The position numbers and the translations under genes were made by a program. A DNA stretch of 64,000 nucleotides from an uncultured Candidatus Peribacteria bacterium (GTDB taxonomy: Bacteria > Patescibacteriota > Gracilibacteria > UBA4473), in the NCBI GenBank assembly GCA_964509975.1, contig CAZDZO010000001.1, forward strand, positions 4,006-68,005, given 5' to 3'. Every line of letters begins with the position of its first letter. Position 1 is the first letter of the stretch. Positions 1 to 47,679 of this stretch are shown here, piece after piece. A model generated the notes under the pieces. That model had not been told where the DNA came from and did not search any database. It was given only the letters and a program-made list of their open reading frames with translations.

Positions 1-326
1 TGACCTGGGTTGAAATTGCAAAAGTAGCCACCAAGTTACACCAACTCAAACAACAATTTTTATTGTCCGTGTTAACCGACCCCCAAGGTATGGTCGCGCA
101 TCTCAAAAAAACTCTGCCAGACATAATTCCGGCAATTGATCAAACTTGGGAACAGGTTCAAGACCGCATCGCCAATGCTGATGACCGAGAAAAAGGGGCG
201 ATTACTGCTTCTGTGATATTAAGTTTAATTCCTTTGGGAAAGATTGACAAAGCCAGCAAGCTTACTGTTTGGGTCGGCGACATCGCCGGAGCACTTAATA
301 AATTTGTCCCGCAATCCGTTCGTTAA
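1..326 (+). CDS. hypothetical protein, C-terminal fragment entering from the window edge
   Basis: The frame of ORF 63..326 has no stop back to nt 3, so the gene probably begins upstream of the window. No motif recognised. Confidence 0.35.
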   Translation, partial: TWVEIAKVATKLHQLKQQFLLSVLTDPQGMVAHLKKTLPDIIPAIDQTWEQVQDRIANADDREKGAITASVILSLIPLGKIDKASKLTVWVGDIAGALNKFVPQSVR

Positions 327-1423
327 ATCTCAATTTTCTGCACAGGATGGGAGAAGTTTTCGAAATGAGACTCGTGTGTAGTCGTAAAAAATATCTGAGA
401 TTCGTTGCAGAGATTTTCCAAATAATTCTGACGCGATTGGTCAAGTTCTGAAAACACATCATCTAGAAGGAGAATCGGGCTCGGTCCGCCAAGCGCTTTG
501 AGAATGTGCTTTTGTGCGGCCAGCATCGCCAACATCACCGACCGTTCTTCCCCTCGTGAAGCGGTGGAAAGAATGGGTTTGTCACGATAATAAAATACAA
601 AGTCATCACGATGAGGTCCGAAAAGACATTTTCCTGCTGCCTGTTCTCGGGCTGAATTTTTGGTAAAGAAATCGAGTACAAACTCTTTTGTCATTTCTGA
701 AGAAGTAAAAACTTCCGCTATTTCAAGTCTCACCTCGATCGTGTCAGTTGTTCGTGAGAGGCCTTGCAGTTCCTTTTGGAGTAAGGGGTTTAGTTCTGCA
801 AGAAACTCTTGTCTCACCTGCACCAAAAGCGGAATAGTCTCTGCTAGGATTTTGTTCCACGGGGCAAGTAAACTGGGATCCGGATCCCACCCCGGATTCG
901 GATCCGAAGTCGGATCCGGATCCCGAAAGGATTTCAAAAGAGCATTTTTTTGCTTCAAGGCACGATTGAACTTCATGAGATTCTCGCGGTAGTGAGGAGA
1001 GATTTGAAACAAAAATCGATCAAAGAATCGTTGTCGATTTCTTTTGGTTCCCGAGAACAACATCAAGTGCTCAGGGACAAAAAGAAGTGTCGGGATTTTT
1101 CCAAAGTGCTGACGAAGGGAAACTTTCTTAGCGTTTTTTTCAAATACGCGAGAACGGGGCGCTATTTTTGCTTCATATAAGTTTCCATTATCGAGTGTTG
1201 CTTGAATGACTCCTGTTCCAGCCTTGGAATTTTCTCGAATCAAATCTTCGCTACTGGTTTCTCTCCAACTTTTGCCCACACTTAGAATTGAGAGAGCTTC
1301 TAGGATATTCGTTTTTCCTTGTCCGTTCCCCCCATAAAAAACCACATTTTTTTCGGTAAATTCAAAATGTTTTTCTTCGTAATTCCGGAAATCAAAAAGG
1401 GAAAGTTTCTCTATCATTGTCAT
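323..1423 (-). CDS. recF: DNA replication/repair protein RecF, carrying a 16-aa repeat-derived insert
   Basis: N-terminal Walker A 'VVFYGGNGQGKTNILEALS' and C-terminal 'ILLLDDVFSELD', typical of RecF. ATG at 1423. Confidence 0.9.
   Translation of the reverse strand: MTMIEKLSLFDFRNYEEKHFEFTEKNVVFYGGNGQGKTNILEALSILSVGKSWRETSSEDLIRENSKAGTGVIQATLDNGNLYEAKIAPRSRVFEKNAKKVSLRQHFGKIPTLLFVPEHLMLFSGTKRNRQRFFDRFLFQISPHYRENLMKFNRALKQKNALLKSFRDPDPTSDPNPGWDPDPSLLAPWNKILAETIPLLVQVRQEFLAELNPLLQKELQGLSRTTDTIEVRLEIAEVFTSSEMTKEFVLDFFTKNSAREQAAGKCLFGPHRDDFVFYYRDKPILSTASRGEERSVMLAMLAAQKHILKALGGPSPILLLDDVFSELDQSRQNYLENLCNESQIFFTTTHESHFENFSHPVQKIEI
876..923. repeat. GGATCC-family palindromic element, 48-nt long form, in frame inside recF
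   Basis: GGATCCGGATCC-CACCCCGGATTC-GGATCC-GAAGTC-GGATCCGGATCC. 45/48 nt identical to the intergenic copy at 2095-2142. Confidence 0.9.
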
Positions 1424-1479: not shown

Positions 1480-2013
1480 TTATTCGAAATAGGGATTAAA
1501 TTCCAATTCATTGGGATACGTATCCGGACCATAGATCGCTGGCACATAGGAAGAATATTCCCATTCCTCTGGCTTGCGCACAATGTCATGTTTCACTGCA
1601 TTCCATTCGATGTATTGTTTGAGTTGAAGAATATAGTCTGAATCATCAGCAAGCTTGGCTTTAAATTTTCCTTCAAAGACGAGCCCTTTCCCCTCTTTAT
1701 ACCGGCTACTAAAATACGCTGCATAGGCTTGCTGAAGTTTCCTCATAAATACCGATATTTGTTCTGCTGTTTTGGGATCCGGATCCGGGGTCGGATCCGG
1801 ATCCCGTTCCAGAAGCAAAAAATGAAAATGATTTGGCAATAAACACCAAGCATATATTTCGATGTGTGGACAATTCTTTTTGAAACGGGCGATATTGTCA
1901 TAAAAACGCTCGTAATCTCCATGACGAAAAAAGAGTTTCTGCTTATCACATCCCCTATTGTATATGTGATAGAGATTGTTTTTTTCGAAAACGAGAGTTC
2001 TGTTTGCTGACAT
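1480..2013 (-). CDS. REP-associated tyrosine transposase (RAYT; IS200-like Y1 HUH family, COG1943-like)
   Basis: HUH motif in 'YAWCLLPNHFHFLLLE' and Tyr helix 'QYIEWNAVKHDIVRKPEEWEYSSY'. Single gene flanked by REP doublets. Contains a 10-aa DPDPTPDPDP repeat insert. Confidence 0.8.
   Translation of the reverse strand: MSANRTLVFEKNNLYHIYNRGCDKQKLFFRHGDYERFYDNIARFKKNCPHIEIYAWCLLPNHFHFLLLERDPDPTPDPDPKTAEQISVFMRKLQQAYAAYFSSRYKEGKGLVFEGKFKAKLADDSDYILQLKQYIEWNAVKHDIVRKPEEWEYSSYVPAIYGPDTYPNELEFNPYFE
1514..1525. repeat. 12-nt perfect palindrome GGATACGTATCC (TACGTA-core variant)
   Basis: Identical 12-mer at 7158-7169 and 29225-29236. Here it encodes DTYP near the RAYT C-terminus. Confidence 0.7.
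1775..1804. repeat. GGATCC-family element, 30-nt short form, in frame inside the RAYT gene
   Basis: GGATCCGGATCC-GGGGTC-GGATCCGGATCC. Confidence 0.9.
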
Positions 2014-2094: not shown

Positions 2095-2142
2095 GGATCC
2101 GGATCCCAGCCCGGATTCGGATCCGGGGTCGGATCCGGATCC
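2095..2142. repeat. GGATCC-family element, 48-nt long form, intergenic
   Basis: GGATCCGGATCC-CAGCCCGGATTC-GGATCC-GGGGTC-GGATCCGGATCC. Confidence 0.9.
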
Positions 2143-2160
2143 GAATCTGAACCAAACATC

Positions 2161-2211
2161 AAAAAAACCCCACTCGAGTATATATCCTCGAGCAGGGTTT
2201 CTTCTTTTTTT
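2161..2211. terminator. bidirectional hairpin terminator candidate downstream of the S-layer gene
   Basis: AAACCC..CTCGAG-tatatatc-CTCGAG..GGGTTT stem, flanked by an A-run on one side and a T-run on the other. Confidence 0.45.
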
Positions 2212-2264
2212 CATTCAGCGGAGACATAGTGCTCCTCTCTGACGAAGTAAAGTTTTCTCACCTT

Positions 2265-2294
2265 GGATCCGGATCCCCAAGGGGATCCGGATCC
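2265..2294. repeat. GGATCC-family element, 30-nt short form, intergenic
   Basis: GGATCCGGATCC-CCAAGG-GGATCCGGATCC. Confidence 0.9.
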
Positions 2295-7094: not shown

Positions 7095-7122
7095 CAGTTC
7101 GAACTCTTTAGAGTTCAAACTG
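7095..7122 (+). repeat. REP-like doublet CAGTTCGAACTC-TTTA-GAGTTCAAACTG
   Basis: Degenerate copy of the doublet. It overlaps the last four codons and the stop of CDS 7108..7578. Confidence 0.75.
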
Positions 7123-7578
7123 TTTGCAAAATTTCTCAATTTCTGTTTTTGAGTTTGGGATACGTATCCACCTCGAATCCGAAATTTCCGACGCTTCCTC
7201 TTCCCCAAAGTTCTCAATAATATCTACGCTCACCTGCACAGACTGTTGCAAGTACTCCAAAGACTGCTTTGTTTCCTTGAGCGCATTCGCCGTTTTCATT
7301 ACCGATCCCTCGATTTTATTAAATCGCCGACTGCCTTCTCCTGCTGTTTGGGATAAATCTGTTTTTAATTTCTGAAGTTTTTTTTCCAAATACACTTGCC
7401 GTTGTTCGAGCTCTCCCACTTTAGTCTTCTCTAAAAATTCCCCCAAAAGTCCCACCTCCTCACGCTCTGGTTCCAAAAATGCTTGCGCTTTCTGCCAAGA
7501 AGACGAAATGTCAATATATTGAGAAAGCACTATTCCAATCGTGATAAAAAAGACAAGCACAAAAAGTCGTTTGATCAT
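7108..7578 (-). CDS. membrane-anchored coiled-coil protein, paralogue A
   Basis: 'MIKRLFVLVFFITIGIVLS' TM anchor followed by a coiled-coil-like body. Paralogous to 7629..7985. The C-terminal ~30 aa are encoded by repeat sequence. Confidence 0.6.
   Translation of the reverse strand: MIKRLFVLVFFITIGIVLSQYIDISSSWQKAQAFLEPEREEVGLLGEFLEKTKVGELEQRQVYLEKKLQKLKTDLSQTAGEGSRRFNKIEGSVMKTANALKETKQSLEYLQQSVQVSVDIIENFGEEEASEISDSRWIRIPNSKTEIEKFCKQFEL
7158..7169. repeat. GGATACGTATCC palindrome inside the 3' end of CDS 7108..7578
   Basis: Exact 12-mer, read as WIRIP. The downstream ~14 nt weakly resemble the long-form GGATCC element. Confidence 0.6.
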
Positions 7579-7591
7579 TCTTATTTTTTAA

Positions 7592-7618
7592 GAGTTCGAA
7601 CTCTAAGAGTTCAAACTC
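7592..7618 (+). repeat. REP-like doublet GAGTTCGAACTC-TAA-GAGTTCAAACTC
   Basis: Sits between the two tandem paralogues. Confidence 0.85.
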
Positions 7619-7628
7619 GAAATGCAAA

Positions 7629-7985
7629 CTAGAATCCCAAACTATCCTTTGTTTTTTCTGTCGATTCTTGCAGGTTTTCAATAGCTTTTTGCGTGTCTTC
7701 GATTGCCTGCTTTGTCTCCATTACAGAAGTTTCTATTTCTTCAAATTTCGCTGTCCCTTCTTCGACTTTTGCCTCAAGAGACTTTGTCAGTGTTGATAAT
7801 TTTTTTTCTAACTTTTCTTTCTGACTCAAAAGTTCTTTAATCTCAATATCTTTAAAAAGCTCCACGCCAAATTCATTTTCCAAAAAAAGCTGAGCCTTTT
7901 TCCAAGCCCCTTCTAAGTCCACATTATTTGACATCAAAATTCCGCCCCCGATCAAAACCAGAAGTACGAATAGTCTTTTTATCAT
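7629..7985 (-). CDS. membrane-anchored coiled-coil protein, paralogue B
   Basis: 'MIKRLFVLLVLIGGGILMS' TM anchor. Alignable with 7108..7578 over the N-terminal ~110 aa. Confidence 0.6.
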   Translation of the reverse strand: MIKRLFVLLVLIGGGILMSNNVDLEGAWKKAQLFLENEFGVELFKDIEIKELLSQKEKLEKKLSTLTKSLEAKVEEGTAKFEEIETSVMETKQAIEDTQKAIENLQESTEKTKDSLGF

Positions 7986-8366: not shown

Positions 8367-8396
8367 GGGATCCGGATCCGAGGTCGGATCCGGATC
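8367..8396. repeat. GGATCC-family element, 30-nt short form, intergenic
   Basis: GGATCCGGATCC-GAGGTC-GGATCCGGATCC. Confidence 0.9.
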
Positions 8397-8405
8397 CCAA
8401 AATAT

Positions 8406-10847
8406 CTAATAACTCAACGCATCTCTAAACTCTTGTCGGGTCACTTCTCTTCCAAAATCAACACTTCGTCCTGTCACTTTCTTCACCATCGCCGTTGCAT
8501 CGCGCGGTATCACTCCTGCTGTCGGATGAAAGAATGGAGCAATTGAATACCCATCTCGATAACTCAGCAACGCTGCGGAGAAAAACCAATCTCGAGAACT
8601 GACATCTGAAAAAGGATTTTTTCCGGGCATTATTCTCGCGCGTTCTATTGTATAAACGAATGTCGGGACGCCTTCCATTTTCACGTCCTTGAGTCGAAAG
8701 GTAAGTCCTGACAGATATGGTTCATAAAGAAAATAAAACATTCCCGCCCGTGACAATGTTCTATCAGGAAACGCTATTTTTTCTCCATGCTGTTGTCTCA
8801 TATATCGGTACAACACTTTATTATCAGGTCTGACTTCCGTTGGATGCATTGTCTTTGTATTGGGCTCATACCCAGGATACCATTGAGAAGCAGCGACTCT
8901 TTTTTCATAAGAATCAAGTGACACTGTTCTGTTTTGGTATGTACTATTTGGCGTTGGGTTGTCTTGGGGATTTACTGGATCGGCATTGAGAACATATTTC
9001 GAAACCCACACCGGAAAGTGCAACAAATCCTCATTTCCGAATCGATCAATCACCCGCAAAGAAATTTGTTTTTCTCCGGGAGTTGTAAATGTTTTTTTCA
9101 CTTTCTCAGATCCAACGACCACTTTTACTCCCTTGGAAATCAGATCACTTGTTCCACGATAATCAAAATCCCACGCGTACCTGAGTTCTTGTCCGACACT
9201 GTCAGATGCATCAAATTCAAAAACTGTCTTCGTGTCTCCATATCGTCGATTCGCTTTTACACGAGCTTTAACGGATTGCGTCTCTGGAAACACCGTAACC
9301 ATACGAGCCACAGCGTGTACTTTTCCACTTGAATCTTGTGTTTGCATTCGTGCGACATATTGTCCCGCTTCTCTATATCGCCATTCAAATGAAGTCAGGT
9401 GTCTGAATCGATTATCCCATTTTCCGTCTCCATCAGCGTCGAATCGCACCTTTATTCGAGAGTTTGGTGTTTGAGAATCTTGTATCTTTGGAAAGAAATG
9501 CACTTTTTGCCCTACGTAAATATATCGCTGATCTACGGTAAAATTTCCATGAGGTGCTGTACTCGCCACCACTTGTAGAGGGACTGTTGCATCTGTCGAA
9601 ACAAGATCTCGGTTTTGCACCTGCACAACTGGTTTATATTTCCCTTGTCGAGAGAAGACATGCTCTACTCGTGAGTTATTATGAAAAGGAGTATCCCAAT
9701 TTCCATCTCCTTCAAAATCCCATCGGTAGGTAAACCCACCACTTCCACCACTCTGTTGACGAATGCTGGCAGTGAGCACCACTTTGTCTCCGGCCACTAC
9801 CTTAAAAAAAGTTTGTTTTTCTTGTCCAGAAGTAAAGTACGTTCCTCGTGTTCTATTTTGTACACGTAATTCTGCTCGATAATCGAGCGGGTCTTCTTTC
9901 GTTTCCACAATAACGAGTGTCTCTTCGCATTTTGGTTGTGCTCGATCATAACAAGTCCGCACGCGCACTTCGTGTTTTCCTGGAGCATCAAACTTTTTAA
10001 ATACCACATCTTTTCCTTTGATAAATTGTTCCCCTGCAAAACCCCACTCCATCCATGCATGTGCTGGAACTCGAGAATTTGAAGCATCAAATCGAAACAC
10101 GGTATCCTCCGTAAATCCCTTTTTCCCAGGAGAAACATCTACAATCGGAGCAACTACTACGGGAGATGATATCCTCATTTTTGGCCACGTTTCCCTCAGC
10201 ATTGTTCGACGAATCGCTGCACCTCCCTTTGAAGACAAATTCTCAATTCCTCGTATTCGCTTCACCGTTCCGTCTACAAATTTCACTTCCACCGTCGGTG
10301 AAACCTGTCCCACCTCATGAAGGGAGTAGGTGTGAGTGACAATCTTTTGTCGTGAATAAGATGTATCAAATCGTCCATCAGAATTAAAGTCCCATCGAGC
10401 TTGCACCGTGTCTTTGTCTTCCGTTCTCGGTAATGACACTTTGAGTTCAAAGTACGCTGGTTCTCCGGCCCTAATCTTTGTTGGCCGCACAGAAATCCAC
10501 GCTTTTCTATAAATATCTCCGACAACTTTATACGATCGATATGTTGACTGTATTTGCGACGTGTTTCGTTCTCTCACCTGGAGTCGAGCCCTCTGTGTTC
10601 CAATATTCATTGGAATGTATTTTTGACGAGATTTCGTAGACCAGTCTGTCCATGATTCTCCTCCCTTAAATTGGAATCGATATTCCAGTCCACCTTTGCG
10701 TCCTTGGGAGTTAAGAGAGTCTGACGCATCAAATGCAAACTCCTTGGCAATCTGCCCAGTCGCCGGACTGACGGTTAAATTCGCCGTCGGCAGGGTTGAT
10801 GCCCACGCAGTGTTGCAGAAGAAAAAGGAGAAAATACTCAAAATCAT
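8406..10847 (-). CDS. secreted PKD-repeat protein with C-terminal SLH-like domain
   Basis: Signal peptide 'MILSIFSFFFCNTAWA'. Repeated PKD-type motifs ('FAFDASDSLN', 'FRFDASNSRV', 'YRWDFEGDGNWD', 'FEFDASDSVGQELRYAWDFDY'). C-terminal 'FSDVSSRDWFFSAALLSYRDG'. Confidence 0.7.
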   Translation of the reverse strand: MILSIFSFFFCNTAWASTLPTANLTVSPATGQIAKEFAFDASDSLNSQGRKGGLEYRFQFKGGESWTDWSTKSRQKYIPMNIGTQRARLQVRERNTSQIQSTYRSYKVVGDIYRKAWISVRPTKIRAGEPAYFELKVSLPRTEDKDTVQARWDFNSDGRFDTSYSRQKIVTHTYSLHEVGQVSPTVEVKFVDGTVKRIRGIENLSSKGGAAIRRTMLRETWPKMRISSPVVVAPIVDVSPGKKGFTEDTVFRFDASNSRVPAHAWMEWGFAGEQFIKGKDVVFKKFDAPGKHEVRVRTCYDRAQPKCEETLVIVETKEDPLDYRAELRVQNRTRGTYFTSGQEKQTFFKVVAGDKVVLTASIRQQSGGSGGFTYRWDFEGDGNWDTPFHNNSRVEHVFSRQGKYKPVVQVQNRDLVSTDATVPLQVVASTAPHGNFTVDQRYIYVGQKVHFFPKIQDSQTPNSRIKVRFDADGDGKWDNRFRHLTSFEWRYREAGQYVARMQTQDSSGKVHAVARMVTVFPETQSVKARVKANRRYGDTKTVFEFDASDSVGQELRYAWDFDYRGTSDLISKGVKVVVGSEKVKKTFTTPGEKQISLRVIDRFGNEDLLHFPVWVSKYVLNADPVNPQDNPTPNSTYQNRTVSLDSYEKRVAASQWYPGYEPNTKTMHPTEVRPDNKVLYRYMRQQHGEKIAFPDRTLSRAGMFYFLYEPYLSGLTFRLKDVKMEGVPTFVYTIERARIMPGKNPFSDVSSRDWFFSAALLSYRDGYSIAPFFHPTAGVIPRDATAMVKKVTGRSVDFGREVTRQEFRDALSY

Positions 10848-13828: not shown

Positions 13829-14079
13829 AGGGAATTTCGGGTAGTTTTTAAGTGTTCTTTTTTGACGTATCTAAATCCTGTTGAACGGCTATCCCCCGTG
13901 ATTTCTTCGTCCGAAGAACAGGAGCGCGAAGAACCCTTTTGGGGAAGTAGATCGCGTCGTTTTTGTTTTAACGTTGAACGTTATCAACTAATTAAGTAAC
14001 AATTCGAGATGGTACCGTCCCGCCTGTCGGGGCTCTCGTGAAGATTCCCTTCGCTTATTTTTTGTTTACAATATCTTGT

Positions 14080-17000
14080 ATGAAAAACATTTTTCCCTCG
14101 TTCGACCCTCAAAAATCAATTGCTGAACACGAAACCGATATTTTGAAGTTTTGGAAAGAAAACCAAATTTTTGAAAAATCTGTTAATCGTCGTGCCAAGC
14201 GCAATGAATTCGTGTTTTTTGATGGGCCTCCGTTTGCAACGGGAACACCGCATTATGGACACATACTAGCGGGAGCAATTAAAGATGTGATTCCACGGTA
14301 CAAAACCATGCAAGGATACCGCGTCAATCGAAAATGGGGATGGGATTGCCACGGAGTTCCGGTGGAATTTCAGGTGGAAAAGGAACACCGCATTGGTGGA
14401 AAACCGGGTATTGAAAAAATGGGAGTTGGGAAGTTTAATGAACTCTGTCGAAGTGTCGTCTTGCGATGTGCTGACCAGTGGGAATCAACCGTTGATCGCA
14501 TGGGACGATTTGTGAATTTCAAAGACGATTACAAAACCATGGATCCCGAATTCATGGAATCGGTCTGGTGGGTTTTTGGGGAATTATGGAAAAAGGGACT
14601 CATTTATGAAGGAGAAAAAGTGGTCTCCTATTCTCCGAAGCTCGGAAGTCCTCTTTCTAATTTTGAAGCAAATTTAAATTATAAAGATATTGATGATCCA
14701 GCGGTAACAGTAAAGTTTGAGCTAACAGAAGAATCGAAAACATATTTCTTAGCTTGGACGACGACCCCTTGGACGCTGTTATCGAATTTAGCCTTAGCGG
14801 TGAATCCGAAACTCGAATATGTGAAGGTAAAAAACGAAGAATCTGGAGAAAGTTATTGGCTCGGAAAAGGCGTACTTGAAAAATACGGCATCACTCAAGA
14901 GGGAGAATATACGGAATTTTGGAACGAAGTTGAACGACGAAAAGGAAAAGATCTCATCGGAAAATCTTACACGCCACTTTTTCCTTTCTTCGAGAATCAT
15001 GAGAATGCCTTCCAAGTTCTCTCGGCTGATTACGTGTCGGCAGAAGAGGGGACGGGGATCGTTCATCAGGCCCCGAATTTCGGGGAAGACGATGCCAAGG
15101 CCTGTCATGAAAATAACATTGGACTTCTTGAAAATCCGATTGATGAGCATGGATTTTTTAATGACAAAATTACTGAACTCAAGGGAAAATATTTTCGAGA
15201 TGATCCGGAAGTAGAAGGTTCCGTGGATGACAATGCAAACAAGTGGGTCCTTGATAATTTGGGGACGAAACTCTTTATGAGAAATCAAATTCGACACTCC
15301 TATCCACACTGTTGGAGAACAGATTCTGCATTGATGTATCGAGGAATTAAAACGTGGTTTGTTGATGTGCAGAAAATTAAGAAAACTATTTTAGAACAAA
15401 ACCAAAACATTAATTGGGTGCCAGAACATTTGAAAGATGGTCGATTTGGGAAGATGCTTATTGATGCTCCGGATTGGGCGATTAGTCGAAACAGATACTG
15501 GGGAACTCCAATTCCTGTGTGGCGATGTGACGCGTGTGGAGATATCGAGGTGATGGGATCGCGCGCAGATCTTGAGAAAAAAATTGATAAAAAAGTTGAG
15601 GATCTCCATAAACATTTTGTTGATGATATGGAGTGGGGATGTGCGAAATGTAAGGGGAAAATGAAACGTATCGAGGAAGTGCTCGACTGTTGGTTTGAGT
15701 CTGGGGCGATGCCGTATGCGAGTCAGCATTATCCGTTTGCGAACAAAGAAAAGGATGTTGAACTTCGAGAAGTAAAAACAACGAAAGACTGGGAAACGTA
15801 TCATGAGCTTGTAAAAACCGAACTTTTTGAAAGACTTCTTCCTTCTCTTGTTTATGACAAAAATTATCCTGATGGAATAAACCCAAAGACCGTTTCCAAA
15901 ATCTTGTTTTTGAAAGATGAACCGATTGGAGTTCTTTCCTATGGTCCCGCTGATGCATATAATTCATTGAAAGAATATGCCCCCAAGGATTCTCTCTTTT
16001 TACGATTCATCGCTATCAAGAAAGAGTTTCAAGGCAGAGGATTCGGTCACTCCGCCATAAAAGATTTCAAAAGTTTCGGTTACGAAAATAATTTTGAAAA
16101 TTTAATTTTAAATTCTGCTCCTGGTGCCGTAGGGTTTTATGAAAAACATGGATTTGAAAAGGATTTTTGGACAGGACATGCTGAAACAAATCCTGAAAAC
16201 ACCCCTTTTGGAAAAAAATCTGAAATCGAAAATCTGAAATCGAAAATTGCCGATTTCCCGTCTGCTGACTTCATTGCCGAGGGACTCGATCAAACACGTG
16301 GATGGTTCTACACCCTGCATGTTTTGGGATGCGCGTTGTTTGGAAAAAACATCTTCAAGAACGTGATTACCAATGGAATCGTCTTGGCAGAAGATGGACA
16401 AAAGATGTCCAAGTCCAAGAAGAATTATCCAGATCCAAATATTATTTTTGATAAATACGGAGCGGATGCGATGCGATTTTATATGCTCAATTCTCCAGTT
16501 GTAAGAGGAGAGAATTTCAGGTTCGCCGAGAACGGTGTCGCTGAAGTATTGAAACAAATCATCTTGCCACTGCGTTCGAGTTATCAGTTTTTCTCGACCT
16601 ACGCGAACATCGATAATTGGCAACCAACCAAGTTTCTCTTTGTTCGGCACGGGGAAGGCGACCATAATGTCGCTCATATTTATTCTGGAGATGTGAAGAA
16701 CAAACATCACCTGACAGAGAAGGGTCGAGCACAAATTACCGAAACCGCGAAACACATTCGAAATTTTGATGTCCTTGTTGCATCTCCTTTCATTCGAACA
16801 CAAGAGACCGCTGAGATTCTGAAAAAAGAATGTAAATTTGAAGGCGAAATTATTACTGACGATCGAGTGCGAGAACTCTTTTTTGGAAAACTCGAAGGCA
16901 AGCCCTTCCTTCCAAAAACAGAACGACTCTCAAATAAAGAAACCGAACAACCTGAAGCGGTGGCAAAACGAGTGTCTGAATTCATGTCCGATATGGCGCA

Positions 17001-18219
17001 GAAATATCCAGGAAAAACGATTGCTGTCGCAAGTCACGGAGGTGCTGTTTTGGAAGCGATTGCGATGACCAATCGTGTACCGCACGGGACAGAAGATTAC
17101 TTGCGAGTCTTCCAACCGCCTACGGGAACCGAAACCGTCGTGTTCGCCGAACCCGTTCCTCAGACCGAACTCGATCAATGGATTTTGTCTGAACTACAGA
17201 CCCTCATCGAGCAATACAAAAATCATTTCGATGCCTACGATTTAGAAGGAGCGTTGAAACTGATTCCTGGATTTATTGATAACCTAAACAATTGGTATTT
17301 GCGTCGTTCTCGTCGTCGATTCTGGGCACCTGACATGAGTGAAGAAAAACAATCTGGGTACGAAACGCTTCATCACGTACTCTTCATGGTGTCGAAAATA
17401 TTGGCCCCTGTCTGTCCATTTTTCGCGGAAGATTTGTTTCAGAAACTCGCACATGGAGAATCTGTTCACCTTACCTTTTTCCCTTTTGCGAAAAAAGAAT
17501 GGCAGAATGAAAAGATTGAAGACAAGATTCGTCTTTCTCGAGAAATCGTAAGTTTGGCCGCTGGAATCAGGGCACGAGCAAAGGTAAAACTCCGACAACC
17601 GCTTGAGAAATTACAATTCATGACCACGGACAAGGCGAACCTCGATCTTGATATTTTAAAAGAAGAGGCCAATGTAAAAGCAGTGGAACAACTCACTTCT
17701 GTTGAAGGTTTGGCTGATCGTGTTGTCCGCGTTAATGCCAAAAAAGTTGGCCCACGTCTCGGAAAAAAAGTGCAAGAAATCATTGCGAAAGGAAAATCTG
17801 GCGACTTTGAACTTTTGAAAAATGGAGATGTGAAAATTGCGGATGAGATTCTTACGGGTGAAGAATTTAGTTTTGGATTCGTTTGTGAAGAAGGGGTAGA
17901 AGCCGAAGCCACCGCTCGAACCGTAGTTATTCTCAATACAGAAATTTCTGAAAATTTGAAGTTGGAGGGATTCTCCCGAGAAGTTATTCGAGCCATTCAA
18001 GAGCTTCGAAAGAAAAAAGATTTCGATATCGCTGATCGTATTTCGATCCGGTACGCTACCGACTCGATTGCAATAAAAGACGTGTTCAAAACGTTTGAAT
18101 CGCTCATTGCTGGAGAAACTTTGGCTGAGGAAATAATTCATGGAGAGGTCAGTGATCCACTCGAAGAGCTCGATGTCGATGGGGAGAAACTGACGTTGGA
18201 GATTGCAGTAGTGGAGTAA
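14080..18219 (+). CDS. ileS: isoleucyl-tRNA synthetase with two inserted enzymatic domains
   Basis: HIGH motif 'PHYGHILAG', KMSKS motif 'GQKMSKSKKN', 'WAISRNRYWGTPIPVW' and 'AEGLDQTRGWFYTL'. ATG at 14080 ('MKNIFPSFDPQK') is preferred over the GTG at 14038. Total length about 1379 aa, versus the roughly 1000-1050 aa I expect for this IleRS type. Confidence 0.93.
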   Translation: MKNIFPSFDPQKSIAEHETDILKFWKENQIFEKSVNRRAKRNEFVFFDGPPFATGTPHYGHILAGAIKDVIPRYKTMQGYRVNRKWGWDCHGVPVEFQVEKEHRIGGKPGIEKMGVGKFNELCRSVVLRCADQWESTVDRMGRFVNFKDDYKTMDPEFMESVWWVFGELWKKGLIYEGEKVVSYSPKLGSPLSNFEANLNYKDIDDPAVTVKFELTEESKTYFLAWTTTPWTLLSNLALAVNPKLEYVKVKNEESGESYWLGKGVLEKYGITQEGEYTEFWNEVERRKGKDLIGKSYTPLFPFFENHENAFQVLSADYVSAEEGTGIVHQAPNFGEDDAKACHENNIGLLENPIDEHGFFNDKITELKGKYFRDDPEVEGSVDDNANKWVLDNLGTKLFMRNQIRHSYPHCWRTDSALMYRGIKTWFVDVQKIKKTILEQNQNINWVPEHLKDGRFGKMLIDAPDWAISRNRYWGTPIPVWRCDACGDIEVMGSRADLEKKIDKKVEDLHKHFVDDMEWGCAKCKGKMKRIEEVLDCWFESGAMPYASQHYPFANKEKDVELREVKTTKDWETYHELVKTELFERLLPSLVYDKNYPDGINPKTVSKILFLKDEPIGVLSYGPADAYNSLKEYAPKDSLFLRFIAIKKEFQGRGFGHSAIKDFKSFGYENNFENLILNSAPGAVGFYEKHGFEKDFWTGHAETNPENTPFGKKSEIENLKSKIADFPSADFIAEGLDQTRGWFYTLHVLGCALFGKNIFKNVITNGIVLAEDGQKMSKSKKNYPDPNIIFDKYGADAMRFYMLNSPVVRGENFRFAENGVAEVLKQIILPLRSSYQFFSTYANIDNWQPTKFLFVRHGEGDHNVAHIYSGDVKNKHHLTEKGRAQITETAKHIRNFDVLVASPFIRTQETAEILKKECKFEGEIITDDRVRELFFGKLEGKPFLPKTERLSNKETEQPEAVAKRVSEFMSDMAQKYPGKTIAVASHGGAVLEAIAMTNRVPHGTEDYLRVFQPPTGTETVVFAEPVPQTELDQWILSELQTLIEQYKNHFDAYDLEGALKLIPGFIDNLNNWYLRRSRRRFWAPDMSEEKQSGYETLHHVLFMVSKILAPVCPFFAEDLFQKLAHGESVHLTFFPFAKKEWQNEKIEDKIRLSREIVSLAAGIRARAKVKLRQPLEKLQFMTTDKANLDLDILKEEANVKAVEQLTSVEGLADRVVRVNAKKVGPRLGKKVQEIIAKGKSGDFELLKNGDVKIADEILTGEEFSFGFVCEEGVEAEATARTVVILNTEISENLKLEGFSREVIRAIQELRKKKDFDIADRISIRYATDSIAIKDVFKTFESLIAGETLAEEIIHGEVSDPLEELDVDGEKLTLEIAVVE
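15754..16248 (+). other. GNAT N-acetyltransferase-like domain inserted in the IleRS catalytic core
   Basis: 'LFLRFIAIKKEFQGRGFGHSAIKDF' (the Q/RxxGxG/A acetyl-CoA motif) and 'APGAVGFYEKHGFE', lying between the IleRS blocks 'HYPFANKE' and 'ADFIAEGLDQTRGWFY'. Confidence 0.8.
16627..17166 (+). other. histidine phosphatase (PGAM/cofactor-dependent mutase superfamily) domain inserted in IleRS
   Basis: 'FLFVRHGEGDHN' (RHG motif), 'LTEKGRAQ', 'VASPFIRTQETAEIL', 'ELFFGKLEGKP' and 'IAVASHGGAV', lying between 'FFSTYANIDNW' and 'LDQWILSELQ'. Confidence 0.8.
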
Positions 18220-20188: not shown

Positions 20189-21439
20189 CTAAGTTCTGAT
20201 CTGAAAGATCTCTGCCGAATTTGGATTGGCAAGGAGTCTATTTTGTAAAACCTTATCGACCGTTTCTTTTGAAGCTTCTTTGAAGTTCCAGCATCGGAAG
20301 ATACGAACTCTTACCTCTGTATCAAACATTGTTGAAAGCTTCTCACTAAGCGCCACCGCTGAGTCGTCTTCAAAGGGAAGGACTGCATATTTGAATTCAA
20401 CGGATCCGGATCCCGACTCAATAAGCACCTCTTTATTTGGGTTATAAATCAATCCAGATTCAAACAATTTTTTCTTGGGATCCGGATCCCCTTCAACTTC
20501 AATTTCATACAAGAAAGATTTTTCAAATTCTATTTTTTCACCCGCAATATTGCTGGCAGTTTGTGAAACAGAAAAAGCTTCGTTATCCGTGATAAGGAGT
20601 TTCTTTTCCATCACAATCGCAACTTCTTTAAGTTCTAGAGTTGGTGTTTCTGGAACTTCAACTTTACTAAAATCTCCAATTTCAACACTTTCCGGAGAAC
20701 GTCCTGCTTTAATCCATTCGTTCATTGATTTCATAATCTGGTCTCCATCACATGAAGCATAAAACCGCTCAGGATGGGGCATAATCGCACCCACTGTTCC
20801 CTCCTTGTTTACTATCATTGCGGTAGCGAAAAGAGCTCCGTTTGGAGTAATTGGAAAATTTGCGTCGACATTTCCTTCCTCATCACAGTATCGGAACGCC
20901 ACTTGACTTCCTTCTTCAAGAACTCGTAAAGCTGTTTTATCAATTGATGTGAATCGTCCTTCTCCATGTGCCACTGGCACCTTCAATAATTCTGAAACGT
21001 TATGAGAAAACGCCGTATCTTTTCGTTCTGGTTTGATATTTACCCACACATTGTAGTACCCCGTTCCGAGTACTTTTCCTTCCTTGTCTCGGCGAACATT
21101 GTCGGCGAGCGAGAATGGCACAGGGTTGTCTCCGACCGGAATCAATCCTGATTCTACAATCATTTGAGCTCCATTACACACCCCAAGAATCACTTTTCCT
21201 TTCTTGGCTTCTTCTCGAATAGCGTCGAATATTTTTTCTCGTGCGGCAATTGATCCTGATCGTCCTCGATCTTCAAATGAAAATCCTCCAATCAAAAAAT
21301 ATGCATCAAAGTTTCCTATTTTTTCAATTTCGTTCCAAAGCACGAGTTCTGCTTCAAATCCATTTCTTTCTGCCGCACGAATAGATTCTGATTCGCAATT
21401 ATTTCCAGGGAACGTGATAACGGCAAGTTTTGGGGTCAT
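20189..21439 (-). CDS. purQ: FGAM synthase glutaminase PurQ fused to two tandem PurS-like domains
   Basis: ATG at 21439 ('MTPKLAVITFPGNNCE'). 'LGVCNGAQMIV' holds the Cys nucleophile; 'AHGEGRF' and 'MPHPER' are also present. C-terminal ~165 aa contain two PurS-like repeats, ending 'GLIYNPNKEVLIE' and 'LLANPNSAEIFQI'. The longer ORF-track N-terminus overlaps rmuC and is rejected. Confidence 0.8.
   Translation of the reverse strand: MTPKLAVITFPGNNCESESIRAAERNGFEAELVLWNEIEKIGNFDAYFLIGGFSFEDRGRSGSIAAREKIFDAIREEAKKGKVILGVCNGAQMIVESGLIPVGDNPVPFSLADNVRRDKEGKVLGTGYYNVWVNIKPERKDTAFSHNVSELLKVPVAHGEGRFTSIDKTALRVLEEGSQVAFRYCDEEGNVDANFPITPNGALFATAMIVNKEGTVGAIMPHPERFYASCDGDQIMKSMNEWIKAGRSPESVEIGDFSKVEVPETPTLELKEVAIVMEKKLLITDNEAFSVSQTASNIAGEKIEFEKSFLYEIEVEGDPDPKKKLFESGLIYNPNKEVLIESGSGSVEFKYAVLPFEDDSAVALSEKLSTMFDTEVRVRIFRCWNFKEASKETVDKVLQNRLLANPNSAEIFQIRT
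20402..20413. repeat. single GGATCCGGATCC unit in frame (GSGS) in the PurS-like region
   Basis: Exact 12-mer. Confidence 0.8.
20478..20489. repeat. single GGATCCGGATCC unit in frame (DPDP) in the PurS-like region
   Basis: Exact 12-mer, 64 nt from the unit at 20402. Confidence 0.8.
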
Positions 21440-29224: not shown

Positions 29225-29236
29225 GGATACGTATCC
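29225..29236. repeat. GGATACGTATCC palindrome immediately downstream of the lepA stop
   Basis: GGGATACGTATCCC lies 3 nt past the lepA stop codon. Confidence 0.6.
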
Positions 29237-47649: not shown

Positions 47650-47679
47650 GGATCCGGATCCCCCTAGGGATCCGGATCC
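47650..47679. repeat. GGATCC-family element, 30-nt short form, between convergent rny and trmB (likely a bidirectional terminator hairpin)
   Basis: GGATCCGGATCC-CCCTAG-GGATCCGGATCC. Its last base overlaps the trmB stop codon. Confidence 0.85.

Follow-up and report, generated by a model that had tools for sequence, protein, structure and literature searches.

Why does a perfect 12-nt palindrome recur both between and within the genes of an uncultured Candidatus Peribacteria bacterium? The palindrome is GGATCCGGATCC, the unit of a GGATCC-based repeat family, and we analyzed it in a 64,000-nt stretch (hereafter the window) of contig CAZDZO010000001.1 (GenBank assembly GCA_964509975.1). Related loci, denoted by L numbers (P numbers denote proteins), were reached via RecF, RAYT-like and PurQS (PurQ-PurS fusion) homologues, and their sources were named Peribacteria, Peregrinibacteria or "Gracilibacteria". 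We propose that the units are probably the stems of hairpin repeats similar to repetitive extragenic palindromes (REPs) and tied to a gene similar to those of REP-associated tyrosine transposases (RAYTs), forming a REPtron-type system. In a REPtron, hairpin repeats lie on both sides of their RAYT gene, which is single-copy and vertically inherited (10.1101/2021.07.10.451892; PMC3733652).

A hairpin-forming repeat within and between intact genes

The unit had 14 exact matches in the window and 0 in 100 dinucleotide-preserving shuffles, in agreement with the over-representation claimed in a preliminary description of this DNA. GGATCC was found at 39 sites (13.2 ± 3.1 expected), 30 of which fell within elements; the nine isolated sites were at chance level, neither enriched nor avoided. 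The 14 units, all perfect, make up four elements of 30 nt, two of 48 nt, and a pair of single units that lie 76 nt apart and count as one locus, giving seven loci (a count that covers the window, not the genome; further copies occur in L118 and L149). The short form is unit-N6-unit, with 6-nt loops that differ between elements, and the long form has a middle unit, GGATTCGGATCC. This layout had been described correctly, except that the copy placed at 8367 starts at 8368. The elements are as follows.

876 to 923, minus strand: 48-nt long element, unit-CACCCC-GGATTCGGATCC-GAAGTC-unit, in frame in recF, encoding DPDPTSDPNPGWDPDP
1775 to 1804, minus strand: 30-nt short element within the RAYT-like gene, in the loop that follows the HUH motif (post-HUH loop), encoding DPDPTPDPDP
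2095 to 2142, unstranded: 48-nt long element between genes, 82 nt before the RAYT-like start codon
2265 to 2294, unstranded: 30-nt short element, spacer CCAAGG, intergenic, 69 nt 3′ of the stop of the S-layer-homology protein gene
8368 to 8397, unstranded: 30-nt short element, spacer GAGGTC, intergenic, starting 9 nt past the stop codon of the gene for the PKD-domain protein
20402 to 20413, minus strand: single 12-nt unit, GSGS in the purQ-purS fusion
20478 to 20489, minus strand: single 12-nt unit, DPDP in the purQ-purS fusion
47650 to 47679, plus strand: 30-nt short element, spacer CCCTAG, filling the gap between convergent rny and trmB

The genes that host or adjoin them are listed here.

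323 to 1423, minus strand: recF (TIGR00611, E = 1.6e-84), host of the 876 element
1480 to 2013, minus strand: RAYT-like HUH/Tyr (Y1) transposase gene, 177 aa, Pfam Y1_Tnp, between the S-layer-homology protein gene and recF
8406 to 10847, minus strand: PKD-domain protein gene, with the 8368 element just past its stop
20189 to 21439, minus strand: purQ-purS fusion gene, host of both single units

The suggestion that the units of an element pair was borne out. As single-stranded DNA, the 30-nt forms fold into a 13-bp stem with a 4-nt loop (ΔG −15 to −16 kcal/mol), and the 48-nt forms fold into nested hairpins (−18 kcal/mol, −17.8 for the recF copy, and −23 kcal/mol). A search of Rfam with the window and with positions 2000–2400 gave only two tRNAs above threshold and nothing significant at the elements.

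Three of the seven loci are coding (recF, the RAYT-like gene and purQ-purS), and four are intergenic (2095, 2265, 8368 and 47650). All three host open reading frames (ORFs) are intact, and their inserts are read in the hydrophilic DP or GS frame, as had been noted. In the AlphaFold model of RecF (pLDDT 90.6), the insert is a coil at the tip of a helical hairpin, between helices 143–165 and 185–221, and is the lowest-pLDDT stretch of the model; in the model of the RAYT-like protein, the insert is likewise a coil (residues 70–79), after the HUH strand. Further hosts of in-frame palindromes are RibD, where the L149 copy of the 48-nt form lies between the HAE and PCxxC motifs, and, in relatives, a multidomain class-I (Ile-type, by Pfam) tRNA-synthetase gene.

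This synthetase gene (window 13996–18219, plus strand; L195 14472–18605; L196 8078–13312) encodes a 1407-aa protein in which a GNAT acetyltransferase domain (623–722) and a histidine-phosphatase domain (881–1028) split the halves of the catalytic domain, and its orthologues show an extra match to DUF559 (Vsr-like endonuclease).

A RAYT-like gene at the center of the cluster

Four of the seven GGATCC loci lie around or inside the RAYT-like gene, within ~1.5 kb of this only Y1 gene in 64 kb, and the arrangement is the key to the likeliest mechanism. Two of them, the 2095 and 2265 copies, sit between the S-layer-homology protein gene and the RAYT-like gene. The preliminary description overlooked the gene, as it did the window's GAGTTCGAACTC and GGATACGTATCC palindromes.

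NF047646 (REP_Tyr_transpos) was the sole NCBIfam match of the window protein and of all 20 aligned homologues, among which H62, H64 and Y134 are invariant. The family profile had a single match in the PDB, 4ER8 (E. coli TnpA_REP bound to a REP hairpin; E = 5.8e-9), in which the alignment paired the HUH strand and the tyrosine helix. Foldseek also placed 4ER8 on top for the AlphaFold model (pLDDT 84.6), with a template modeling (TM) score of 0.64/0.68, against 0.42–0.49 for the IS200, IS608 and ISDra2 transposases. With its HUH motif and catalytic tyrosine, and closer to TnpA_REP than to IS200 transposases, the gene is RAYT-type as judged from sequence and predicted fold.

RAYTs keep their genomic position across related genomes (10.1101/2021.07.10.451892). 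Here, the position between the S-layer-homology protein gene and recF is kept in six related loci, one from a strain of the window's own organism (L070) and five from related genomes (L074, L075, L076, L077 and L198); L076 has two adjacent RAYT-like genes. In all eight RAYT-like loci examined (the window, L074, L075, L076, L077, L198, L202 and L203), the gene is flanked by recurrent palindromes of its own genome, including the distant homologues in L202 (beside dnaJ) and L203, which have other gene neighborhoods, each with its own palindrome family. In L197, an aspartyl-tRNA synthetase gene stands in place of the RAYT-like gene beside recF, and no recurrent palindrome was found in its 21 kb.

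The palindromes also enter the gene itself. In seven of the eight loci, an in-frame palindrome, usually a doublet of the genome's dominant family, occupies the post-HUH loop, at these positions.

Window: 1775–1804
L074: 9670–9701
L075: 9615–9639
L076: 8989 and 9648–9674
L077: 8651–8678
L198: 9638–9663
L202: 483–523

The window, L077 and L203 have an extra copy near the C-terminus of the RAYT-like protein. The post-HUH copy may have arisen by local hopping, or it may serve as a master copy or in autoregulation.

The same intergenic region contains a conserved non-coding element of ~90 nt (window 2161–2245, minus strand), between the S-layer-homology and RAYT-like genes, which is also present in L074, L075, L076 and L077. 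Its first hairpin is nearly invariant (ACUUCGUCAGAGAGGAG...CUCC.CUGAAUG), and its second part combines a terminator hairpin, in which three pairs show compensatory changes, with a U-run. The element had no match in Rfam; it could be a small RNA, a 3′ untranslated region element, or a leader for the RAYT-like gene.

Sister palindrome families and the reading frame

At least five sister families of 10–12-nt perfect palindromes occur in related Peribacteria-type genomes: GGATCC, GAGTTCGAACTC (the GAGTTC family), GGATACGTATCC (the GGATAC family), AACCC(C)GGGGTT and AGCCCGGGCT. Palindrome density in the relatives was 0.2–1.9 units per kb, and genomes differed in the families that they carry, as the counts of 10-nt cores illustrate.

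Window: GATCCGGATC, 14; AGTTCGAACT, 4; GATACGTATC, 3
L074: AACCCGGGTT, 20
L075: AGTTCGAACT, 19; GATACGTATC, 7
L076: AGTTCGAACT, 17; AACCCGGGTT, 7
L077: ACCCCGGGGT, 5
L198: AGTTCGAACT, 12
L202 and L203: carriers of AGCCCGGGCT and AACCCCGGGGTT, respectively

Two sister families are present in the window, where two of the four GAGTTC doublets lie within ~1.5 kb of the RAYT-like gene and directly flank it.

1443 to 1469, unstranded: perfect doublet GAGTTCGAACTC-TAA-GAGTTCGAACTC, starting 11 nt downstream of the RAYT-like stop
1514 to 1525, minus strand: GGATACGTATCC unit read as PDTYP in the RAYT-like protein's C-terminal tail
2018 to 2044, unstranded: decayed GAGTTC doublet directly before the RAYT-like start codon; its orthologues in L075 and L076 are perfect
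7095 to 7122, unstranded: decayed GAGTTC doublet that overlaps the small ORF 7108 to 7578 at its 3′ end
7158 to 7169 and 29225 to 29236: further GGATACGTATCC units, the latter followed by a T-run
7592 to 7618, unstranded: GAGTTC doublet with one mismatch, between paralogous small ORFs

These paralogous ORFs (7108–7578 and 7629–7985, minus strand) are arranged in tandem, both start with MIKRLFVL and have a coiled-coil-like composition. Each is followed by a GAGTTC doublet, one of which provides the last codons and the stop of the first ORF.

All five cores are centered on CG (GGATC-CG-GATCC, GAGTT-CG-AACTC, GGATA-CG-TATCC, AACCC-CG-GGGTT and AGCC-CG-GGCT), and the outline G-R-R-T-N-CG-N-A-Y-Y-C is common to three of them. 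Such centering may reflect recognition or cleavage requirements of the enzyme.

The sister families bear on two features that the preliminary description had presented as special to the GGATCC elements, namely that every element lacks stop codons in all six frames and that element lengths are always multiples of three. The spacer of the 47650 element (CCCTAG) contains TAG in one frame per strand. The lack of stops is weak evidence in any case, because about 60% of random sequences of such form are stop-free (58% of 12-nt palindromes and 63% of 6-nt spacers between units). The lengths of 12, 30 and 48 nt follow from the hexameric 12+6 build plus selection, and the same build recurs in three further loci from other assemblies (L026, L118 and L149). 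Unit spacing in the sister families is 14, 22, 23 or 24 nt, also inside genes, which breaks the rule of three at the level of the unit, and the two units of an intragenic pair are read in different frames (e.g., NPGS...GTRV). Since such spacings occur even within genes, frame preservation is the outcome of selection on whole insertions, not a built-in property.

Insertion and turnover at orthologous sites

Orthologues of RecF, PurQS and the RAYT-like protein differ in length exactly at the insert loops, with different families there in different genomes. The differences amount to 9–16 codons, and the copies are insertions of 27–48 nt. The RecF loop after KQKNALLKSF is an example.

Window: DPDPTSDPNPGWDPDP (GGATCC long form)
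P0123: DTYPKDTYP (inferred GGATACGTATCC)
L075 and L076: SSNSKSSNS (AGTTCGAACTCTAAGAGTTCGAACTC)
P0126: SNPGSTRDFSGQNPG
L077 and all more distant orthologues: no insert

The same pattern is seen in two other loops of RecF and in two of PurQS. It extends to intergenic DNA: the spot just after the stop of the PKD-domain protein gene, which holds the 8368 element in the window, is empty in L077, and the window, L074, L075 and L076 have four different arrangements there, the last three with other palindrome families.

In P0128, the RecF loop after KQKNALLK reads SFQDSSSNSSSNSELLKSFQDSSSNSSSNSE, in which the palindrome peptide is duplicated along with the host residues LLKSFQDS. This may be the footprint of a local duplication of the element.

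Some copies are old. L195, which encodes a protein with 80% identity, has the 14-nt GGGATCCGGATCCC of purQ-purS (at 20478) unchanged at the corresponding site, and the partner unit at 20402 has decayed there to GGATCCGGATTC; both units are absent from L196. Judging from these sequences, the GGATCC family is therefore older than the split between the window and L195, in which it persists as a relic. Other copies seem to share a source. The 48-nt form with the same GGATTC variant (the GGATTCGGATCC center) is found in recF, in the intergenic copy at 2095 and in RibD of L149, and thus points to copying rather than independent origin.

Annotated coding sequence makes up 90% of the DNA in seven related loci yet holds 48 of their 101 units (p = 1.5e-26). 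The units are thus depleted from genes relative to random placement, yet far more often intragenic than classical REPs. Inside genes, hydrophilic, turn-forming frames dominate across families: GAGTTC units were read as SSNS 18 times, EFEL 6 times and VRT twice, GGATAC units as DTYP more often than GYVS, and GGATCC units as DPDP and GSGS only. Codons are also conserved. At the recF doublet, L075 and L076 have identical codons at nine of nine positions (baseline for conserved residues, 0.49; p = 0.0016), and for the purQ-purS unit the figure is five of five (p = 0.055), which reflects either constraint on the DNA itself or recent renewal.

A proposed REPtron-like mechanism and its alternatives

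The REPtron-type reading would account for these observations as follows. The RAYT-like protein would be the mobilizing enzyme, and movement would be ongoing: the enzyme would recognize the hairpins in single-stranded DNA and copy or re-insert them, preferring DNA near its own gene, a preference that would explain the cluster at 876–2294 with its copies in the RAYT-like gene and recF. In a gene-dense genome (~90% coding), most insertions would strike genes, and purifying selection would spare only insertions in surface loops that bring in neither a stop codon nor a frameshift, leaving DP, GS, SSNS, DTYP and NPG linker peptides. Intergenic copies would mostly remain just past stop codons, and a few would be co-opted as terminators.

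Several points weigh against this reading. The window protein scored 54.5 bits against NF047646, for which the equivalog cutoff is 80, and is thus a divergent relative. REPtrons have a GTAG or CGTC head, and GTAG is needed by E. coli TnpA_REP for cleavage; no shared flanking tetranucleotide (GTAG or CGTC head) was found here in the flanks of all seven loci, nor was any target-site duplication, conserved target or direct repeat at the flanks inspected. The immediate flanks of the window gene are GAGTTC doublets, with GGATCC elements at least 82 nt upstream and inside the gene, so a different enzyme, encoded beyond the window, might serve the GGATCC family. When RAYT protein similarity (loop removed) was compared with palindrome family, no clean sorting emerged, and a scheme of RAYT subfamilies matching palindrome classes was dropped. 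The enrichment near the gene was measured on loci retrieved by recF, RAYT and purQ, which are a biased sample rather than a genome-wide one, and the negative control is L197 alone, one 21-kb locus. Finally, we infer mobility although no element was gained or lost among strain-level assemblies. The window's organism recurs in four marine assemblies (same or near-same strain), in which the elements are at identical positions without any presence/absence polymorphism, and the only indels are in the S-layer-homology protein gene.

Part of this counter-evidence suits an alternative that we regard as unlikely, although it fares best among the rivals: a selfish palindrome like the Rickettsia palindromic elements (RPEs), spread independently of the Y1 gene by another transposase or by recombination or repair at hairpins, with the RAYT-like gene as a tolerant hot spot. 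In-frame copies in intact genes, the missing GTAG tag, the other family at the immediate flanks of the window gene, and the failure of RAYT similarity to track the family all agree with it, and CGTC-type REPs are also without a dedicated transposase (PMC3733652). However, the flanking layout was found in eight of eight RAYT-like loci, including L202 and L203 in new neighborhoods. A passive hot spot would hardly be expected to accompany the gene into other surroundings, with a family of its own in each.

Within the REPtron-type reading, a bolder version gives the in-frame post-HUH copy a special role. We offer it as a doubtful possibility: this copy would be the family's master copy or an autoregulatory target, the family would be seeded from, and co-evolve with, a translated segment of the transposase, and new families would displace old ones at the same sites by hairpin-targeted replacement. 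If so, daughter copies would be stop-free and codon-phased by construction, and the system would be a self-referential one by which reduced genomes continually acquire short linker peptides in housekeeping-protein loops.

The palindromes might instead be sites for a dimeric DNA-binding system (DNA uptake, restriction-modification or methylation, nucleoid or partition) in species-specific "dialects", kept by selection or uptake-driven drive. This we consider improbable. Perfect units, synonymous sites conserved across species, lineage-specific variants at orthologous positions, and inverted pairs just past stops would be expected of such sites; GGATCC is the BamHI site, and copies occur in a DNA-repair gene, in keeping with a bias reported for Neisseria uptake sequences. 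Nevertheless, the copies are 27–48-nt insertions relative to orthologues, not motifs arising by point mutation, unrelated families coexist in one genome, and families are tightly linked to the RAYT-like gene. The link to a GGATCC restriction-modification system raised in the preliminary description found no support either: single sites are at chance level, the sister cores are unrelated, and a regular-expression search for methyltransferase motifs found nothing convincing in the window ORFs.

More improbable still is that the hairpins are functional RNA or DNA structures (terminators or mRNA stabilizers) selected site by site, with repetition arising by convergence or local duplication. REPs are known to act as terminators or mRNA stabilizers (PMC3733652), and the 47650 copy resembles an rny terminator; with 15 pairs ahead of TTTTTT on the plus strand, no other site of its region is as terminator-like. 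The 8368 and 2265 copies are just downstream of stops, and the 29225 unit precedes a T-run. Yet a T-run follows only one of the four intergenic GGATCC copies (47650), those at 2095, 2265 and 8368 not resembling intrinsic terminators; nearly half of the units are intragenic; and convergence leaves identical 12-mers at unrelated loci unexplained.

Slippage of a (GGATCC)n microsatellite, selection for DP/GS linkers, or a cloning-linker artifact is hardly credible, for all the hexamer periodicity, the GGATCC pattern in many high-GC genomes (probably coding DP/GS repeats) and literature matches for the GGATCCGGATCC string that are only synthetic GS linkers and BamHI primers. The elements have a fixed build, two perfect units around a loop that varies, rather than a simple tandem array; four of the seven loci lie outside genes; one and the same DNA sequence is translated in two frames; and sister families whose sequences are not hexameric behave alike. 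A BamHI-linker artifact in particular is excluded by the same positions in four independent assemblies and by one copy conserved in another species.

Comparison with known systems

The REPtrons of Proteobacteria (structure 4ER8) share several properties with the system proposed here: short hairpin repeats as singlets and dimers, a single-copy HUH/Tyr gene that keeps its position and is flanked by repeats, the possibility of several families and more than one RAYT per genome (L076 has two), intergenic copies clustered at the 3′ ends of genes, and apparent decay of a non-dominant family (the window's GAGTTC units are mostly imperfect). Unlike REPs, the units here are perfect 10–12-nt palindromes, each symmetric in itself, and the elements are only 27–48 nt long. 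REPs are "almost exclusively extragenic", whereas three of the seven window loci and 48 of the relatives' 101 units are intragenic. The near-constant in-frame post-HUH copy, the host from the candidate phyla radiation (CPR) and the score below the equivalog cutoff are further differences.

Intragenic REPs are not new, which lowers the degree of novelty implied in the preliminary description. GTAG/CGTC REPs lie within genes in, for instance, Opitutus terrae, Thauera and Xanthomonas recB (Di Nocera et al. 2013, PMC3733652), as in-frame monomers or dimers in known proteins, with many replication or repair genes among the hosts; different REPs occupy about the same site in orthologous Xanthomonas recB, and flexible loops have been argued to hold the insertions (PMC3733652). 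Those copies are a tetranucleotide-tagged minority of large extragenic families, whereas here the intragenic share is 43–48%, the units are untagged, and family turnover at orthologous sites was seen at several sites. With intragenic REPs, REPtrons and RPEs already described (PMC3733652), what sets the present case apart is its untagged, perfectly symmetric units and very high intragenic share, together with family turnover at orthologous sites and the near-constant in-frame copy within the RAYT gene.

The likeness to RPEs drawn in the preliminary description is apt: they, too, are palindromic, in frame in intact genes and tolerated in protein surface regions. However, RPEs are longer (~100–150 bp for RPE-1), occur in Rickettsia only, lack a linked transposase and have no sequence relation to the present 12–48-nt elements. 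IS200/IS605 "peel-and-paste" elements likewise use a Y1 HUH transposase on subterminal single-stranded hairpins, with hairpins on both sides, but they are multi-copy and mobile, whereas the gene here is syntenic, single-copy and, by TM score, nearer to TnpA_REP than to IS608 or ISDra2. The GC-rich double-PstI palindromes of Neurospora mitochondria are dispersed and consist of two adjacent restriction-site-like hexamers; they are organellar and are not known to have an associated transposase or to be translated. DNA uptake sequences (DUS), uptake signal sequences (USS) and the highly iterated palindrome HIP1 arise in place, by point mutation or recombination, without a change in length, whereas orthologues here differ by 9–16 codons, and an intergenic site is empty in L077 and filled in other genomes. 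Miniature inverted-repeat transposable elements have terminal inverted repeats and target-site duplications and are DDE-derived; here, the whole element is a hairpin, direct repeats are absent and the gene is HUH/Y1.

Distribution beyond the window and other observations

A scan of species genomes, whose representatives do not include the window's own genome, for the 30-nt pattern gave 69 stretches, almost all in high-GC Actinomycetota or Myxococcota, where they are probably DP/GS-coding repeats; one Peribacteria genome (L026) carried a true element. A metagenome scan gave at least 117 loci, and among the matches listed the relevant ones were L118 and L149 only, both from the same sample series; neither aligned to the window. 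Three loci from a viral scan (53–71% GC) were rejected as unrelated to the family. In the literature, we found no description of the GGATCC repeat family, nor of RAYT-linked repeats in the CPR.

Most of the low-GC metagenome matches listed were contigs rich in GGATCC in which code 11 gives few ORFs or none. Dozens of contigs among L078–L194 (e.g., L085, L157, L103 and L139; GC 0.36–0.47) are saturated with GGATCC-based repeats, with up to 86 GGATCC sites in 6.6 kb, often beside GCAACACTG; many come from Ga0164295, Ga0068872/6/7 and Ga0194121/3. They are an unrelated, possibly eukaryotic, repeat landscape that has the 12-mer in common by coincidence.

Small stand-alone GIY-YIG genes (74–99 aa) were found between housekeeping genes in L075 (15584–15880 and 20189–20488) and L070 (14905–15129). 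Their positions differ between relatives, which suggests that they are mobile and homing-endonuclease-like.

Implications

If the REPtron-type reading is right, it would extend REP-RAYT type systems, so far characterized mainly in Proteobacteria, to the CPR. In a 90%-coding genome, "extragenic" repeats would become largely intragenic and a steady source of short loop insertions in essential proteins such as RecF, PurQS, RibD and a class-I tRNA synthetase, and palindrome inserts would account for lineage-specific low-complexity loops in CPR proteins. The clade would also provide natural replicates, with families in varied proportions, the same sites filled differently, and one, two or no RAYT-like gene at the locus, so that the birth, turnover and decay of repeat families would be directly testable.

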